Virus record (IMG/VR): IMGVR_UViG_3300016466_000153
Location: 1-27,426 of that record
Length of the DNA: 27,426 nucleotides
Source of the DNA: a virus
Taxonomy: Duplodnaviria; Caudoviricetes
Strand: one strand, 5' to 3'
Below the pieces are notes generated by a model. It saw only the letters and a list, made by a program, of their open reading frames with translations. It was not told the DNA's origin and searched no databases. The position numbers and the translations under genes were made by a program. Positions 7,916 to 25,760 of the stretch are shown piece after piece. Within the stretch, counting starts at the first letter, position 1. Every line of letters starts with the position of its first letter.

Positions 7916-8260
7916 TTAACTCCCAAGTACTAGGTGTAAAGTGGTCACGCCATCGGGGCTGGTCTCCCCTTTGTAGACACCCTCAAAGAATGCATGGTGG
8001 GCATCCTTTGTGCATTTCATAGACCGCTTGGCACAGTTGTACAGCCTACCCCATGTGGGGTTTGTCAGTACGTCTGAGACATAGGCGTGGCTGTCTTCAC
8101 CTCCGAAGTACTCAGCAGCAGGTACATATGCTCTGTACTTGCCTTCGAATGCAACCACGTTACGCTTCATCACGTATCCGTAATCGTCCCGTCGAACCTT
8201 CGACACTAGACTTGGGTCTCTGTCGAGGGTGGATTCACTCACATGTACACTGTAGATCAT
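7916..8260 (-). CDS. Hypothetical protein
   Basis: ATG at 8260 with GGAGG RBS; DAHHAFFEG motif. Confidence 0.65.
   Translation of the reverse strand: MIYSVHVSESTLDRDPSLVSKVRRDDYGYVMKRNVVAFEGKYRAYVPAAEYFGGEDSHAYVSDVLTNPTWGRLYNCAKRSMKCTKDAHHAFFEGVYKGETSPDGVTTLHLVLGS
8190..8205. promoter_or_regulatory. Palindromic operator-like site, copy 1 (intragenic)
   Basis: CGTCGAACCTTCGACA followed by CTAG; one mismatch to consensus. Confidence 0.6.
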
Positions 8261-10058: not shown

Positions 10059-10074
10059 TGTCGAATGTTCGACA
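10059..10074. promoter_or_regulatory. Palindromic operator-like site, copy 2
   Basis: TGTCGAATGTTCGACA, just upstream of an RBS. Confidence 0.75.
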
Positions 10075-11976: not shown

Positions 11977-12244
11977 CTGAATCCTCAGTTTCTACTGTCG
12001 AATGTTCGACACAACAATCGTTGATATCGCCATAGTCTTTTCTGTCCGTAGTGCCATTGTACCCACGAGCATACTGCTCAATCTCACCTGCAGACATCTC
12101 AGCCATGGGCACTCTACGGGATTTGTAGGTAGCCCCTTCGTAATAGTGAGGGTCAAACTCCCTGCCATAGTAGGCATCAGCACCGCCTCTATCGAAAGGG
12201 CCACCATGCCGGTGGGTCTCAACTGCAAACGCTACGTATGTCAT
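11963..12244 (-). CDS. Conserved phage protein (HGGPFDRGxADxYYGR)
   Basis: Motif plus GGAGG RBS. Confidence 0.75.
   Translation of the reverse strand: MTYVAFAVETHRHGGPFDRGGADAYYGREFDPHYYEGATYKSRRVPMAEMSAGEIEQYARGYNGTTDRKDYGDINDCCVEHSTVETEDSDERI
11996..12011. promoter_or_regulatory. Palindromic operator-like site, copy 3 (intragenic)
   Basis: TGTCGAATGTTCGACA. Confidence 0.72.
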
Positions 12245-12702: not shown

Positions 12703-12718
12703 TGTCGAACATTCGACA
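12703..12718. promoter_or_regulatory. Palindromic operator-like site, copy 4
   Basis: TGTCGAACATTCGACA, between the leader hairpin and the RBS. Confidence 0.75.
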
Positions 12719-12731
12719 CTAGACTTCACAT

Positions 12732-12794
12732 ATACAGGGTTATTATTTTTATCCCCTTCACCTTCGGTTCAGGGGTAAAAATATATAACCTATA
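12732..12794 (-). other. Long leader hairpin 1
   Basis: GGTTAT..TATTTTTA-CCCCT-GAACC-GAA-GGTGA-AGGGG-A-TAAAAATA-ATAACC. Confidence 0.7.
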
Positions 12795-13269: not shown

Positions 13270-13971
13270 TCAGGCTAAAGCCTGCAGAGCCGCAATCACT
13301 TTGGCAAGGTCTAAGCCTTCGGCTTTAGCGATTTGAGCCATGCTACTAGCGAATTCAGACTCACTGGCAGTAGATACCTCTACTGCACCATCATCAGATT
13401 CGCTATCAGCCTTCGGCTGTTTTACTGTCGAATGTTCGACACTACCCTTGTTACCTTCGGTAACAGTGTCATCCTCATCAGCCTCAGCCTTCGGCTTAGA
13501 GGCTTTCCGCAACTGCTGACGAAGGTAGGCCGCTGAAGCGGAAGACATTGACATGTCTTTCATAAATTTTTGAACATTTTGCCACTCTGTGGCAAGCCAC
13601 ATGGCATCGGATCGATCTTGACGTGACATTATTCCAAGTGGTGTCTTCGACACCAGTTTGCCATAATCCTTGTCTGAAGCACCGGACACCGAACGTAGTT
13701 CGAGAAGGACTTCACCGATACCTTTCAACTTTTCAAGTTGACCCTTACGTTGTTTTACAAGGGACTTGTAAACAGCGGCTTGATGCTCAATTGCTTCGCC
13801 AAGAGTGTGGCCTTCAGTACCGAAGGTACGGCTGAAGATTGGGTTGCTCTCTTTCAGAGAGGGGATTTGTACTCCCTTGGCTACAGTAGAAACCTTCGGT
13901 TTCGATTGTTCTGCTTTAGCAGAGGGAGCGACAATGGCTTTATCTTCGATAATGGCGAGGTTCGATTTCAT
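13270..13971 (-). CDS. Early protein of unknown function
   Basis: ATG at 13971 with GAAAGGA RBS; helical core and acidic linker. Confidence 0.7.
   Translation of the reverse strand: MKSNLAIIEDKAIVAPSAKAEQSKPKVSTVAKGVQIPSLKESNPIFSRTFGTEGHTLGEAIEHQAAVYKSLVKQRKGQLEKLKGIGEVLLELRSVSGASDKDYGKLVSKTPLGIMSRQDRSDAMWLATEWQNVQKFMKDMSMSSASAAYLRQQLRKASKPKAEADEDDTVTEGNKGSVEHSTVKQPKADSESDDGAVEVSTASESEFASSMAQIAKAEGLDLAKVIAALQALA
13426..13441. promoter_or_regulatory. Palindromic operator-like site, copy 5 (intragenic)
   Basis: TGTCGAATGTTCGACA. Confidence 0.72.
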
Positions 13972-14002
13972 GGTGTGAATCCTTTCAGGATGGTGGGATG
14001 AA

Positions 14003-14182
14003 TTAACGTGAAGCAAGGGAAGCAGAAACAGCAAGGAAAACATTGCCTACGGCAAGGCAAAGCATCAACAGTGATTCGGTACTACCGAATGGGAAAGCCA
14101 AGGCTGCAAATGCAAAGCATGGCAAGGCAATCAGCATGAAAGCAAGGCTGACAAAAGCGGCAATCGATCGGTCTTCATTCAT
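14003..14182 (-). CDS. Two-TM small membrane protein; first gene of the early arm
   Basis: AAGGAA RBS; two hydrophobic segments. Confidence 0.6.
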   Translation of the reverse strand: MNEDRSIAAFVSLAFMLIALPCFAFAALAFPFGSTESLLMLCLAVGNVFLAVSASLASR

Positions 14183-14190
14183 TTTCAATT

Positions 14191-14286
14191 TCCTTCTGTT
14201 GGTTTATAATCAGGGTACTGTAAATTATTCCCCCTTCACTGAAGTTCAGGGGGTAATTTACTAGTACCCTATAAACCTACAGAAGG
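14191..14286 (-). other. Long leader hairpin 2 (occludes the RBS)
   Basis: CCTTCTGT/ACAGAAGG, GGTTTATA/TATAAACC, GGGTACT/AGTACCC, GTAAATTA/TAATTTAC and CCCCCT/AGGGGG. Confidence 0.8.
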
Positions 14287-14309
14287 GTTGTCCCGGCAAC
14301 TTTCGACCC

Positions 14310-14326
14310 AGCAAAAGCCATGCCAA
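14310..14326 (-). promoter_or_regulatory. Putative sigma54 promoter P1
   Basis: TTGGCATGGCTTTTGCT; intergenic, upstream of the first early gene. Confidence 0.65.
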
Positions 14327-14404
14327 ACTTCCACGTAGGAAGCCAAAGGCTGACACAAAGTTTCGCATGTGATGACATGAGACTGATTCGGCAAATCGAC
14401 CCAA

Positions 14405-14421
14405 AGCACAGACCATGCCAA
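14405..14421 (-). promoter_or_regulatory. Putative sigma54 promoter P2
   Basis: TTGGCATGGTCTGTGCT; GG-N10-GC; imperfect duplicate of P1. Confidence 0.5.
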
Positions 14422-14440
14422 TTACATTGGCAAAGGGTAC

Positions 14441-14456
14441 TGTCGAAGGTTCGACA
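14441..14456. promoter_or_regulatory. Palindromic operator-like site, copy 6
   Basis: TGTCGAAGGTTCGACA. Confidence 0.75.
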
Positions 14457-14470
14457 CTAGAAACTGTTGG

Positions 14471-14595
14471 ACACCGAAGGTGAAGGGAGTCGATCTGCCT
14501 AGTGGATAGTTAGGTGATAAACACCGAAGGTGAATGGGGTTAAAGTGATGGACACCGAAGGTGGGGTTGACAAATAGGATTGTACACCGACGGGG
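14471..14595 (+). repeat. ACACCGAAGGTG x3 plus one variant
   Basis: Copies at 14471, 14521 and 14552; variant ACACCGACGGGG at 14584. Confidence 0.85.
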
Positions 14596-14647
14596 TATCC
14601 TTTGGATAAGCCCTCAAAACTGCCATGCCGCTACCCTTTTTTTCAAG

Positions 14648-14693: not shown

Positions 14694-15085
14694 ATGCTAT
14701 GCATTATGGGCTGGAGTCTGCCGATCCTCGCATTGCAATCGCATCACAGCGAGTGACACGTGATCGCTAGGCGCATGCGGCCCTAGGCACGGGCAGGCGT
14801 GGGCCGGTGGGGGGCTAGCGTTATATGTATACGTACTTCTACACAGATCGGGTTTTTATAATAGGTTAGTACTTACTCACTTGCTGTACTTCACCTTAAC
14901 TACCCACACTGTAAACATAAACACTGGCATTCCTTTCACTTTAAGTAGTGGGGAATTGTGGTGTTTAGTGGGGGATTGTGGGTAGTACGTGTTTATGGTA
15001 CAATGTGAGCACTGGCTAGCTTAGCAGTACAGACGTAATTTTGGCAGGCCATAGCAACTATTTTCATGTACAAGTGAAAAAGTAC

Positions 15086-15562: not shown

Positions 15563-16054
15563 ATGGCAGTAGGTGCTAAGCTTGCAGCTTGGATGTCTAA
15601 GAAAGTTAAAGAGACTCCAAGCACACGGGATTACTCAAAAGATCCTCGTATGGATAAAAGGGAAGTTAAAGAGACCATGGCTATGGTAGAGATGCCAAAG
15701 CTATCTCGTGCGGAGTTACTAGAACTTGCAAAAAGTTCCAGAAGTATCCGAGGTCAAGCTGCTGCGGATGAGTTGGAGCGTAGGGGGCTTAAGAAGTTTC
15801 TTAAGAAAACTGGAAAGCTGGATGATCCTATAGAGAACCCGGAGTACGATAGCCCTCGTGGAGCACGTAATAAGGGGCAGCGTTTGTCTGATGCCCTTTC
15901 TGCAAGTGAGGTTAGGGAAGATATGGCAGAAAGGGAAGCAAAGGCAAAAGCAAAAGGACTATACAAAGGTGGTATGGCAAAGAAAGCACCAGCTAAAAAA
16001 CCAATGCCAGCCAAGAAGCCTGTAGCCAAGAAGCCAGCACCTAAGAAGAAGTAG
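15563..16054 (+). CDS. Basic protein with KKP-repeat (histone H1-like) tail
   Basis: AAGGAG RBS; YKGGMAKKAPAKKPMPAKKPVAKKPAPKKK. Confidence 0.7.
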   Translation: MAVGAKLAAWMSKKVKETPSTRDYSKDPRMDKREVKETMAMVEMPKLSRAELLELAKSSRSIRGQAAADELERRGLKKFLKKTGKLDDPIENPEYDSPRGARNKGQRLSDALSASEVREDMAEREAKAKAKGLYKGGMAKKAPAKKPMPAKKPVAKKPAPKKK

Positions 16055-16372
16055 ATGGCTGACTTTCCTGATCGCTACAAGAAGATGGGTTTCACAGGCT
16101 ATAACCAGCCTAAGAAATCCACTAAGCCTGAGAAGAAGATGATGGTTGTAGCCAAAGAAGGTGACAAGGTTAAGCTGATCCACTTTGGTGACAGTAGCAT
16201 GGGCCATAACTACAGCAGTGAGGCTCGTGCTAGTTTCAAAGCAAGACATGCTGCTAACATCAAGAAGGGTAAGTTGTCAGCAGCATACTGGGCCGATAAA
16301 GAACTATGGTCAGGCCCCAGTGGTAGTAAGAAGATGCCCCCTAAAGGGCAGAAGCATAAAAAGGGTCTATGA
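16055..16372 (+). CDS. Conserved basic protein (KLIHFGD...SFKARH...SAAYWA; DUF5754-like)
   Basis: Motif recall. Confidence 0.7.
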   Translation: MADFPDRYKKMGFTGYNQPKKSTKPEKKMMVVAKEGDKVKLIHFGDSSMGHNYSSEARASFKARHAANIKKGKLSAAYWADKELWSGPSGSKKMPPKGQKHKKGL

Positions 16373-16399
16373 CCATTATCTTTAAGAAAGGAAAGTAAA

Positions 16400-16720
16400 A
16401 TGGCTTTATCAAGTAAGATTGCTAAGAAGTTGATGGGACTGAGTGCTGCTGAGAAGAAAGCACTCCAAGAGGAACTAAATGCTCCTGCTAAAAAGGGTCG
16501 TACTCTAGAGGAAACAGAAGCTGAGTACACACCTGCTGAGCGTAAGCAGATGGAAGATGCACTCAAGAAGATTGGTCGTGAGTCCACCAAGATGGCTAAA
16601 GGTGGTATGGTCAAAGCCAAGATGGCTTATGGCGGCATGGCTAAAAAGAAAATGAATAAAGGTGGTATGGCTAAGTGTGGTGCTTCTAACCCTGCCTCTG
16701 GCGGTAGCCGTAGCAAGTAA
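16400..16720 (+). CDS. Basic protein with three tandem MxxGGM repeats
   Basis: AAAGGA RBS; 10-aa repeat period. Confidence 0.7.
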   Translation: MALSSKIAKKLMGLSAAEKKALQEELNAPAKKGRTLEETEAEYTPAERKQMEDALKKIGRESTKMAKGGMVKAKMAYGGMAKKKMNKGGMAKCGASNPASGGSRSK

Positions 16721-16732
16721 GGACACCTACAG

Positions 16733-17068
16733 ATGGCTAACAAGGCTCCTATCCCAAAGACTTACAAAGGTAAGCCGACAGCAGGCATGTCGGTAAAAGA
16801 GTTTGAACAGATGTACAAAGAACTTGGGCTAGACAAGCCAAGTAAGTTTACCCCCAAGGGGGATTTTAACGAAGAGCCTGATATGCCACCTAAGAAGAAG
16901 ATGGCTAAGGGAGGTAGTGTGAAAGCATTTAAACCATGTCCGGGATGTCCATCACCTGCTAAGTGTAAAGCAGCAGGCAAGTGTGCTATGAAGTCTAAGA
17001 AGGCAGCTACCGGTATGTTGGTGATTCCGGTGAAGATGTCTAAAGCCCCAGCTAAAAAGAAGAAGTAG
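16733..17068 (+). CDS. Basic protein with MAKGG motif and CxxC-x5-C-x5-C cluster
   Basis: AAGGA RBS. Confidence 0.68.
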
Positions 17069-22629: not shown

Positions 22630-22848
22630 ATGAGTGAAACAAAGCAGTATGTATGGAAGCTAAAGAGTCTGGCTGGTGCTGGGCAGTGGAAAGCTTTTTG
22701 TGAAATGCTGGATTACAAGATTGAATTGCAACAAAAGAAACTAGAGCAATCAAAAGATCCTGTAGATATCTATCATGCTCAGGGTGCCATTCAGGCTTTA
22801 CGCCAAATGAAGCTGCTAAAGGAAGAGATTAATGGGACTGGCAAGTAA
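22630..22848 (+). CDS. Conserved small protein after portal
   Basis: IYHAQGAIQALR motif. Confidence 0.7.
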   Translation: MSETKQYVWKLKSLAGAGQWKAFCEMLDYKIELQQKKLEQSKDPVDIYHAQGAIQALRQMKLLKEEINGTGK

Positions 22849-24511
22849 ACTAGCTAAGGCAATTACTAGTGAGGCAAAAAAGTCCTCTCGTAGAATTGAC
22901 TCTGCAAAAACTCCAAATACAAAAGAGAGTAAAGTTTTTAGCGATGATACGCAAGCCGATGTTCTTCCAGAAAAAGAAAGCACTGAAAACTTTAACAGAA
23001 AATTTAAAGACACTGTAGTTGTAGACGAAAACAAAAAACCTATTCGTATGTATCATGGTAGAACACAGGACTATGACACATTCGACACTAGTGGATCTTC
23101 TAGCCGATTTGGGGAAATAGGGACACATTTTGGTCCTTACCAGCAAGCAAATCAATTTGCTTCAAAAGAAGGTGGGAATATTGTCCCAGCATACCTAGAT
23201 ATAAAAAATCCATTGCGGCTCCATGATTATGGAAGTTTTGATGCCACTGAAGTGCTAGAGCAGTTAAGAGGTTACGGTTTTGATAACAATATCATAGATA
23301 GAATTCAAGACCTTCCGTACGAACAGCAAAGTAAAGCAACAATTGATTTAATAAAAAGTAAAGGATACGATGGAATTGTGTACCTCAATCGTACAGACCT
23401 TAATTTAAAAGGTACCCCCGAACAAGTTGAGCGTCAAATGGACAGGCTAAAAGATAAAGACGATGCCACTTTAATAAAAAAATATGGGGCCAAAGACTCT
23501 TACATAATTTTTGATCCAACACAAGCAAAGTCGGCTTTTAACAAAGGAAGCTACAGCGAAACGGATGCTCGTTTTAATTTTAATATAGGGGGTTCTGTAA
23601 ATACAGAATCTAAAAACACACCAATGAAACAAATTAACAATCAAAGCCAGACCCTGTATCCAATGAAGCAGGACATGGCTGTCCCTCCGGGGCTTGGTGC
23701 TCCTGTTCCTCCTAACGTCCCCGGTCAAGTGAATATGGCTGAAGGTGGTTTGTATGACGAGGGTGGCACGGTAGATCCTGTGTCTGGCAATGAAGTACCT
23801 CCGGGTTCTACGCAGAAAGAGGTACGGGACGATATTCCTGCACAGCTAAGTGAAGGGGAGTTTGTATTCCCGGCTGACGTGGTTAGGTTTATTGGCTTGG
23901 ATCGTCTGATGAAGATGCGCCAATTGGCTAAAGAAGGTTTGGCTAAGATGGAAGCAATGGGTCAGATGGGCAACTCAGAAGAAGCAACTATGTCTGACAA
24001 CGGAGAGTTTGAGTCTGACATTGATGAATTGCTTGAGGAAGTTGAAAACGAAAAAGAGCCAGAAGAAGAAATGGAAATGGCTGAAGGTGGTGCAGTTCCT
24101 GCTGTGAATACACAGATGGAAAAAGCAATGCAGCCAAAGATGAAAGCCAGCGATATTATTAAAGCAGACTTGGCTCGTGGTGGGTTTACTGAACAGGAAC
24201 GAAAGTTTTTTAATATACTAGCAGGCAGTGTTGCTAGGGGTGCAGCCGCATTAGTACAGATTAACAATACTGTATTCGTAGGCAGTCGTATAAAGAATGG
24301 GGAATTTAGAGTTCACTTCTTTACCCAAGACAAACCACAGATGTTGGCAGGGGCTATTGAAAAGTACGCAGATATATTGACTCGCTCTGGAATTAAAAAG
24401 ATTCATTCGGTTACAGAAAATACAAAAGTTATTTCCTTGTTGCAAAGCATAGGCTACGCAGTAGACGTAAAGAAACAAGGCAATAAATATATGATTACTG
24501 TGGAGAGATAA
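22832..24511 (+). CDS. Multidomain putative internal virion protein: ART-PolyVal-like + DDIPAxLSxGEFV + C-terminal domain
   Basis: MYHG, GTHFG, YLDIKNPL, GYDGIVY and YIIFDPTQAKS motifs; AAGGA RBS. Confidence 0.7.
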   Translation: MGLASKLAKAITSEAKKSSRRIDSAKTPNTKESKVFSDDTQADVLPEKESTENFNRKFKDTVVVDENKKPIRMYHGRTQDYDTFDTSGSSSRFGEIGTHFGPYQQANQFASKEGGNIVPAYLDIKNPLRLHDYGSFDATEVLEQLRGYGFDNNIIDRIQDLPYEQQSKATIDLIKSKGYDGIVYLNRTDLNLKGTPEQVERQMDRLKDKDDATLIKKYGAKDSYIIFDPTQAKSAFNKGSYSETDARFNFNIGGSVNTESKNTPMKQINNQSQTLYPMKQDMAVPPGLGAPVPPNVPGQVNMAEGGLYDEGGTVDPVSGNEVPPGSTQKEVRDDIPAQLSEGEFVFPADVVRFIGLDRLMKMRQLAKEGLAKMEAMGQMGNSEEATMSDNGEFESDIDELLEEVENEKEPEEEMEMAEGGAVPAVNTQMEKAMQPKMKASDIIKADLARGGFTEQERKFFNILAGSVARGAAALVQINNTVFVGSRIKNGEFRVHFFTQDKPQMLAGAIEKYADILTRSGIKKIHSVTENTKVISLLQSIGYAVDVKKQGNKYMITVER

Positions 24512-24512
24512 A

Positions 24513-25760
24513 ATGGGAGGAGCAGTAGAAGCTGTAGGTGACATTGTAGGTGATGTATTTGAAGGCGTGGGTGACGTAGTAGGTGATGTATTTGATGCTG
24601 TCGGTGATGCGTTTGAAGCAGTAGGTGATGCTATTGGTGACGTTGGGTCATGGATTGACGATAACGTTCTACAGCCAATGCTAAACGATCCGATTAAAAC
24701 CATAGCCACAATTGCCGCTGTAGCTACAGGTAACCCACAATTAGTCCCTTACATTAACGCTGCTGATGCTGCTGCTAAAGGCGGCAGTATTGAAGACATT
24801 GGTAAAGCGTACGCTATTTCGTACGTTGCAGGTGAAGCTGGTTCTAAAGTTGGTACTGCCGTGGCTGGTGAAACCGGTTCACAAGTAGCAGGCAACATTG
24901 CTAAAGGAACTACCCGTGGTGCTGTTACAGCCGAGTTGTCCGGTGGAGATGCAACCAAAGGTGCTCTACTTGGTGGTGCAGTTGCCGGTGCTGGTGAAGT
25001 AGTTAACGTTGTTAAAGAGGCGTTTAAGGATGAACCTGCTGCCCCGACAATTACATTAGAAGAAGCTAAACCTTTGGGTGGTGGCATTGACCCGACAGTA
25101 CTTAGCCGTCCATCAGGGATTGATCCTTTAAAAACTTCAGGGCAAGGTATATCCTCTCCTTCATTTACTCCAGACACTCCATTTACTGGGGATTACTCAT
25201 TGGTTGCCCCTACGCCAACCCCAACACCTACATTTGCAACAGAGGGAGAGCAGCAGTATGGTGTAGCACCTACCCGACCTACTACTGCAACTGGTGAAAT
25301 TGATTATGGTATTGATTCTGAGAAAGTAGAACTGCTTCCTACTCCAGATAAAGATTTGGATTGGAATGCTGTTGGCAATAAGATCCTTAAAGATGCTCAG
25401 AAGGCTTTGGGTAAAACATTGCTTGAGTCTTTGTTCCCGACACCTACTCCAGCCCCACGTAGAAAAGCAGGGGATGGTACTGCGTCTTATGAACTCGGAG
25501 ATGCAGCCAGTGCTGCCTCGGCTACTGTAGGCTTAGAAGAAGTTGGTGTATCTAAATATGATCTAAAGACGTTTGAGAATGAGCAGGGCAATAGAATTAA
25601 TATTCCGTTTAAAGATGATGAACCACAAATGCCAATCCCATCGGGATACAGCGAAGTGAAGATGGCAAAGGGTGGTCTTGCTAAGAAGCGTAAAACTGTG
25701 GTAAAATCCGCAACTAATATGTCGAAAACCAGAAAGGGGCTGGCGGCACAACTAGCGTAG
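24513..25760 (+). CDS. Gly/Ala-rich putative ejection/pilot protein
   Basis: MGG start, VGD repeats, glycine-zipper segments, P/T linker. Confidence 0.6.
   Translation: MGGAVEAVGDIVGDVFEGVGDVVGDVFDAVGDAFEAVGDAIGDVGSWIDDNVLQPMLNDPIKTIATIAAVATGNPQLVPYINAADAAAKGGSIEDIGKAYAISYVAGEAGSKVGTAVAGETGSQVAGNIAKGTTRGAVTAELSGGDATKGALLGGAVAGAGEVVNVVKEAFKDEPAAPTITLEEAKPLGGGIDPTVLSRPSGIDPLKTSGQGISSPSFTPDTPFTGDYSLVAPTPTPTPTFATEGEQQYGVAPTRPTTATGEIDYGIDSEKVELLPTPDKDLDWNAVGNKILKDAQKALGKTLLESLFPTPTPAPRRKAGDGTASYELGDAASAASATVGLEEVGVSKYDLKTFENEQGNRINIPFKDDEPQMPIPSGYSEVKMAKGGLAKKRKTVVKSATNMSKTRKGLAAQLA

Follow-up and report, generated by a model that had tools for sequence, protein, structure and literature searches.

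In T4-type phages, promoter-stem-loop (PeSL) cassettes occupy intergenic cassette boundaries and carry promoters. DNA mini-hairpins with GNA triloops are described, in the sections of PMC13037366 available to us, as nuclease resistant, far less stable when made of RNA and poorly bound by SSB; nearest-neighbour energies miss their stability (PMC13037366). The hairpins of phage N4 promoters have been shown to extrude under supercoiling, and extrusion needs a C-G closing pair plus a flanking G and A (PMC4496689, the part available). Template switching, for its part, homogenises the arms of inverted repeats and inverts their spacers in coding DNA (PMC8604942, in the sections available), and a part in the conservation of perfect repeats in proteobacteria has been proposed for it (PMC5941160, likewise).

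The DNA analysed here (27,426 nt, hereafter the window) is a fragment of the genome of an HMO-2011-type podophage. Such phages, widespread in lakes and oceans, are among the most abundant aquatic phage groups and their life cycle has been little studied. The window's TerL is 72-73% identical to the TerL of CRP-1, CRP-345 and HMO-2011. The minus-strand (early) arm carries integrase, primase and helicase, and the plus-strand arm terminase, portal and capsid; terminase, portal, capsid, primase and helicase are homologous to those of HMO-2011-type phages, with conserved order (integrase-primase-helicase), and the gene of DNA polymerase A, which in this group has a DnaJ insert, would lie outside the window. 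Several late-arm proteins (window 15563-17068 and 22832-25760) have a short MAKGG/MAEGG motif in common and were assigned to no family. At the beginning of the early arm, adjoining the gap between the arms, is a dense field of small perfect inverted repeats (Table 1). The GC skew turns at this site, a signal confounded by the change of coding strand, and no DNA match to the region was found among annotated phages.

Table 1. Features at and around the mini-hairpin field (positions in the window).
Feature	Position	Strand	Remark
Mini-hairpin field	13313..14608	none	23 perfect inverted repeats of 4-8 bp with GNA or AAA triloops
Three CACC-GAA-GGTG copies	14472..14563	+	the GAA hairpins farthest out in the field
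First early gene, 233 aa	13270..13971	-	14 of the GNA/AAA stems lie in it; no known family
Short hydrophobic ORF, about 60 aa, in leader	14003..14188	-	frame also open in L001
Long interrupted stem in leader	14192..14286	-	core CCCC...GGGG at 14229-14252; second copy at 12733-12794
Conserved TATACATA / C-rich motif in divergent-arm gap	14770..14850	-	candidate terminal-repeat start near 14832 (ICBM1 analogy)
Operator-like palindrome TGTCGAA-nn-TTCGACA	14441..14456	none	upstream of gene
Operator-like palindrome	13426..13441	none	within the gene's linker
Operator-like palindrome, further copy	12703..12718	none	
Operator-like palindrome, further copy	11996..12011	none	
Operator-like palindrome, further copy	10059..10074	none	
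Operator-like palindrome, further copy	8190..8205	none	one mismatch

All 14 stems listed by the first-pass annotation are present where it placed them, and the field is larger than first described: a 7-bp stem with a TTC loop at 13725 and several stems with GTA, GGA, GCA or AAA loops had gone unlisted, and a few further stems in the same interval have 2-nt TT/AA loops. The GNA/AAA class amounts to 23 stems in 1,290 nt compared to 24 in the remaining 26,136 nt of the window. Of the window's 16 GAA/TTC triloops (stems of at least 4 bp), 14 fall within 13313-14563. The field spans the leader and the first early gene, where nine of the ten GAA loops are on the sense strand.

If the density of stems simply reflected the encoded protein and its codons, it should reappear when synonymous codons are permuted. 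In 3,000 such permutations within the 233-aa gene the expected number of GAA/TTC stems was 0.61 ± 0.74 (maximum 4), against 10 observed: protein and codon composition thus do not explain the field, and a composition artefact, for which the first-pass annotation had proposed just such a shuffle, is rejected. For the leader (13972-14600), 300 approximate trinucleotide shuffles gave 0.48 ± 0.72 stems (maximum 4) compared to eight observed, three of which are copies of one repeat. A repeat family of a single sequence was also rejected: stem sequences differ and turn over. Regular spacing was not found (median p 0.78, 24 genes), and most genes contain a hairpin-free gap of up to 150-220 nt. The stem at 13979-13991 overlaps the gene's ribosome-binding-site-like GAAAGGA, and the same stem occurs in G005.

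The gene starts at 13971, not at 14043, and its product has 410 homologues, forming 87 clusters at 50% identity, which support a real gene and reject a spurious ORF. The predicted structure comprises a basic, all-helical core (residues 49-160, pLDDT 93) made of a long helix and a helical bundle, a low-confidence linker and a small C-terminal helical part. Searches of PHROGs, Pfam, PDB sequences and Foldseek returned nothing significant. Hints of a DUF3102-like protein, from fold and Atlas comparison, are weak, and PF11300 (DUF3102) matched neither the window protein nor the 70 of 87 distant homologues scanned. The variable linker (window 13380-13500) is mostly spelled by DNA elements – hairpins encode PKA, TEG and SEA, and the palindrome listed in Table 1 encodes VEHST – which suggests that the linker peptide is dictated by these elements. 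A caution for this gene is that DNA structure appears to shape its synonymous positions and even some amino acids of the linker.

Structured RNA is expected to tolerate G-U pairs and to favor a single orientation. GNA mini-hairpins of DNA are expected to combine a GNA loop, free in its middle base, with a pyrimidine-purine closing pair. Loops and stems were therefore pooled from 14 representative genes. Loops of 3 nt (181 vs 35 expected) stand well beyond every other length, and perfect 5-bp stems with GNA/AAA loops number 94 (4.2 expected), while one-mismatch 5-bp stems are not enriched (G-T: 4 vs 6.5 expected; A-C: 2 vs 6.7). GAA, GTA, GGA and GCA loops are all enriched, and at one conserved site the middle base switches between A and T; other triloops occur in 32 stems (about 22 expected). 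The closing pair of the 149 pooled stems is C-G in 107, T-A in 31, G-C in 7 and A-T in 4. Purine loops are in excess on both strands (sense, 105 vs 7.9 expected; opposite, 44 vs 5.7). Loops of 4 nt (51 vs 32 expected) have no dominant sequence, and those of 2 nt are led by TTTA (17) and CTTG (7), which we take to be stable DNA mini-loops. The loop, its free middle base and the closing pair are those of GNA mini-hairpins; the marks of structured RNA are missing, there being no G-T excess and both strands being enriched. Together with the covariation and loop flips described below, the lack of wobble pairs, the use of both strands and the C-G closing pair point to a structural code of DNA type: the signature is that of DNA and not RNA, which bears out the structure-based DNA code first proposed for this locus.

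A role of the stems in early mRNA – in stability, in translation control or as a protein sponge – would accommodate the greater enrichment of purine loops on the sense strand (13-fold vs 8-fold on the other) and the overlap of stem 13979 with the GAAAGGA, but both orientations are strongly enriched, G-U pairs are absent, no tetraloop excess is comparable, TTTA/CTTG dominate the 2-nt loops and loop flips are tolerated; we consider such a role highly improbable. Reading the stems on the opposite strand as UUCG/UNCG RNA tetraloops was rejected, since this register would break the stems.

The field recurs in most homologues of the gene, including those of the cultured phages CRP-1 and CRP-345, and in HMO-2011 it has the same position. 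CRP-1 gp01 and CRP-345 gp01 are clear matches (E 1.8e-9 and 1.1e-7). The case for HMO-2011 gp74 as a homologue is weak (hhalign E 0.021, probability 2%; BLASTP to CRP-1 gp01 E 2e-4) and draws partly on position. In one set, 19 of 20 genes contain 9-17 triloop stems compared to 2-5 expected; the exception, L082, has three (3.6 expected), none of them GNA/AAA. Metagenome contigs supplied 19 more distinct genes (from 26 out of 30 loci, setting aside four partial loci and duplicates), which hold 8-16 GNA/AAA stems compared to 0.8-1.7 expected. A thinner field (3-14 stems vs 0.2-1.6 expected) is found at 22 loci, mostly of the marine CRP-1 clade (22 of 38 loci, the other 16 being near-duplicate or partial), and 19 of the 22 exceed the maximum of 200 shuffles.

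At the level of genomes, five near-complete relatives have 10-25 GAA/TTC stems within 2.5 kb of the gene compared to 8-13 in the whole remainder of 49-53 kb. In nine genomes with the gene, the kilobase richest in stems contains 8-16 of them; in nine without it (one of these incomplete at the site) it contains 1-4: gene and field occur together in 9/9 genomes, and the field is absent from 9/9 genomes that lack the gene. Eight isolates or records without the gene show no field, though several retain the gap motif of Table 1. The clade formed by the carriers is at the same time the closest one (TerL 72-73% vs at most 70%), so the co-occurrence of gene and field may be a single event. Relative to the start codon, the field reaches about 900 nt upstream and 900-2,400 nt downstream, in some lineages taking in the next genes, and is confined to the early side of the gap motif with no extension into the late arm.

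The expectation, voiced with the first description, that relatives should share the cluster is therefore borne out for most of them and fails for one. L082 and L181 are 82-84% identical to the window (DNA) in the gap and late arm, yet have no GNA/AAA hairpin in the gene. The hairpin-free copy (L181 7048-7737; the same in L082 and L003) has a higher GC content and a duplicated leader element, and constitutes a natural control allele. Elsewhere, no such field was found in ICBM1, T7, N4 or VpV262 (3-5 such stems in the first 5 kb of each), nor in the right end of MQM1, in VP2 or in the last 20 kb of phiM6, by which a general property of podophage left ends is rejected. The field is real, conserved and of DNA type, and its repeats probably mirror the folding of this DNA into hairpins, however that came about.

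Individual stems turn over, and density differs by lineage, from about 3 to 16 stems per gene. Alignments by pair and by column were made with L040 (partial), CRP-1, HMO-2011 and phiM6 set aside, and L082 was kept out of the counts. Over 12 disjoint pairs, synonymous differences affect 54 of 324 sites in stems and 415 of 1,505 outside (p = 3e-5); pairwise change at two-fold sites of loops is not significantly lower than outside (20/109 vs 175/757, p = 0.33). Across pairs 162 hairpins were kept, 26 were kept by compensation, 10 were lost by one pair and 63 by 2-4 pairs, with 19 further hairpins not alignable. One stem covaries between GAAC/GTTC (14) and GAGC/GCTC (5), two synonymous sites changing together in all 19 carriers. 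Two loops also flip exactly between unchanged arms (GAA/TTC, 9 vs 1; TCC/GGA, 8 vs 2), altering the protein from Lys to Ser and from Ser to Gly.

Template switching, which the first-pass annotation had not considered, can give rise to perfect stems, and preserve them, in the absence of selection. Since it yields both compensation and flips, these are signs of hairpin-type events and not of selection. The same process might even account for the field as a whole: in a stretch that is often single-stranded, template switching would perfect quasi-palindromes and flip loops, and stable loops would accumulate without benefit. The exact flips, made at the cost of amino acid changes, are what such a neutral drive predicts, as are the few one-mismatch forms (10 losses by one pair vs 63 by 2-4) and the reported capacity of template switching to homogenise arms and preserve perfect repeats (PMC8604942, PMC5941160, in the parts available). 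However, a base in the loop is not restorable in this way, yet in-frame Glu codons that form loops are GAA in 85 cases and GAG in one, compared to 239 and 148 elsewhere – the loop class being defined from the same data, and the counts coming from related sequences. Moreover, two Glu loop columns (GAA in 21/21 and 16/16 sequences) stay constant throughout the tree, whereas 16 other two-fold columns average 4.0 changes. The excess of stems with other triloops is only about 10, and a neutral drive still needs an unusual single-stranded state limited to 1-2.5 kb. We judge it unlikely; the case for selection lies in the loop, that is, on the GAA bias of Glu codons and the two unchanging columns.

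A second element accompanies the gene. The palindrome TGTCGAA-nn-TTCGACA is present in six copies across the early arm of the window, and other genomes with the gene carry 4-7 copies, which in CRP-1 and CRP-345 take the form TGTCCAA-nn-TTGGACA. It is essentially absent from genomes without the gene; HMO-2011 does not match the pattern. The sequence thus changes in step between clades. Dimer operators have this form, a fixed palindrome around a free centre, and from this the 233-aa product is likely to be the protein that binds it. Operators and hairpins are separable codes, since five operators persist in L082 although its hairpins are gone. In HMO-2011 a different palindrome, AGTCCG-ACAG-CGGACT, flanks gp74 (L089 48580-48600 and 49510-49530) and is possibly a diverged operator. 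The two long interrupted stems of Table 1 lie upstream of early genes, and a similar one lies upstream of HMO-2011 gp74; with their CCCC...GGGG cores they may be candidate sites of RNase III-type RNA processing, unlike the mini-hairpins in kind. The short leader ORF possibly encodes a membrane peptide.

Might the hairpins themselves, as such or as cruciforms, be structure-specific binding sites or decoys for the gene product or for a host DNA-sensing protein? The strict association of gene and field (9/9 with, 9/9 without, one incomplete at the site) and the basic, helical core with its weak DUF3102-like hints would fit, but the association may be one event in the closest clade, L082 has the gene without hairpins, the protein is without significant family or fold match, and the operator, changing in step between clades, is the better candidate target. 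This reading is improbable.

An alternative that makes use of both elements is a transcription-activated replication origin. Hairpins would then leave the displaced strand uncoated by SSB and accessible to the phage's helicase-primase, and the gene product would bind the operators lying within and near its own gene. Mini-hairpins are found in the origin of G4 and in ssiA, where CCGAAGG assists the primase RepB' (PMC13037366, in the sections available). CCGAAGG is also the commonest core in the field; the phage encodes a primase and a helicase, on either arm, forks leaving from here would move in the direction of transcription; operator and gene are found together, and purine loops are more often on the sense strand (54 distinct stems in genes, against 34). 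Yet origins usually retain a few fixed elements, whereas here sites turn over, and L082 has gene and operators with no hairpins. An apparent change in loop orientation close to the upstream operator, tried as a sign of an origin, disappeared once repeats had been collapsed (24 vs 17). An origin is, like the neutral drive, an unlikely explanation.

The position of the field bears on a further possibility. The gap motif, 270 bp outside the field, is kept from freshwater relatives to CRP-1, HMO-2011 and phages without the gene, and resembles the first bases of the ICBM1 genome, where the annotated terminal repeat begins. Cobavirus terminal repeats measure 159-173 bp and have a conserved G+C-rich region at the 5' end (PMC6775973, the part available). 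By this analogy the motif is probably the left genome end, and, if the analogy holds, that end would be near 14832 and the field some 230-1,520 nt from it; a long terminal repeat covering the field is disfavored by the length of the cobavirus repeats. The nearness to a genome end suggested in the first-pass annotation stands to this extent, by the likeness of the motif to the ICBM1 start. Three contigs (L043, L057, L058) break within 30 nt of the motif. Contig ends near it are scattered, and the more distant relative phiM6 has been called pac-type (PMC6256558, the part available). A genome end as such needs no field: several phages without the gene keep the motif without the field, and the first 5 kb of ICBM1, T7, N4 and VpV262 have 3-5 stems.

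In T7 the left end enters the cell first. If the left end marked here by likeness to ICBM1 does the same, then the outer 1.3 kb of the early arm, with its 23 perfect repeats, would fold into DNA mini-hairpins upon unwinding, and these would shield the end from host single-strand nucleases and keep SSB or RecA from coating it before phage proteins exist. Such an additive shield of transiently unwound, first-entering DNA is the best mechanism we can offer, and we put it forward tentatively. It supposes a stretch that in vivo becomes single-stranded or supercoiled, and a small benefit from every hairpin, the benefits adding up. Additivity would explain the turnover of sites, the lineage-variable density and the total loss in one lineage, and suits a field so diffuse and variable better than a fixed origin or promoter does. 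Against the shield, hairpins so short would not halt a processive helicase-nuclease. The fuller claim – a second code of DNA structure in which hairpins armour the first-entering end as a protein-free anti-defence acting before expression, with the gene as a new operator-binding regulator of the early arm – is more doubtful still; if true, it would describe an anti-defence strategy that requires no protein and is active before any phage gene is expressed. All readings but the RNA one imply frequent extrusion or a frequent single-stranded state of this DNA. Be it through selection or through template switching, the field would mark a stretch in such a state in vivo, and it bears on genome entry or replication in HMO-2011-type phages. 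With cultured carriers (CRP-1, CRP-345, HMO-2011) and a natural hairpin-free allele, the matter is directly testable.

The GNA mini-hairpin is a known building block. For a kilobase-scale field of unrelated ones inside a coding gene of a dsDNA phage, no description was found in the literature searched, which lacked most subscription papers, and the words "hairpin", "promoter" and "termini" do not occur in the main text of the paper on the HMO-2011-type group as available (PMC9038755). CRP-1, CRP-345 and HMO-2011 have the same first early gene and field, the match of HMO-2011 gp74 being weak. Like PeSL cassettes of T4-type phages, the field consists of repeated stem-loops in an early region, but its stems are short, mostly intragenic and not copies of one sequence.

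The likeness to N4 promoter hairpins, drawn in the first-pass annotation, is closer: both have 5-7 bp stems and C-GNA-G loops near a phage left end (here a left end by analogy), and the loop chemistry, C-G closing pair and G and A flanking the loop are the same (PMC4496689, the part available). That the stems serve as N4-type promoters for a virion RNA polymerase can nonetheless be almost entirely dismissed. The 23 flanks have no conserved -17 to +1 layout, no fixed stem bases and no A-run before the start, and the loops are mostly on the non-template strand. In a scan of relatives in 20-kb pieces, the longest ORF was 1,092-1,143 aa in 5/5 near-complete relatives, without motif A or B of a T7-type polymerase, where N4 has a virion polymerase of 3,500 aa; the N4 genome itself has only four such stems in its first 5 kb. 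The field also resembles inverted repeats maintained by template switching, with perfect arms, compensated changes and spacer inversions in coding DNA (PMC8604942, PMC5941160, in the parts available), but differs in its confinement to one region, its narrow loop set and its fixed closing-pair preference. With the Hirao-type GNA mini-hairpins of the G4 origin and ssiA it has in common the C-G-closed GNA triloop, the CCGAAGG core and a presumed action in ssDNA (PMC13037366, the sections available). Those, however, number one to three per non-coding origin and are fixed, whereas here 10-25 stems, unrelated in sequence, are written in synonymous codons over 1-2.5 kb of a dsDNA phage, and turn over.
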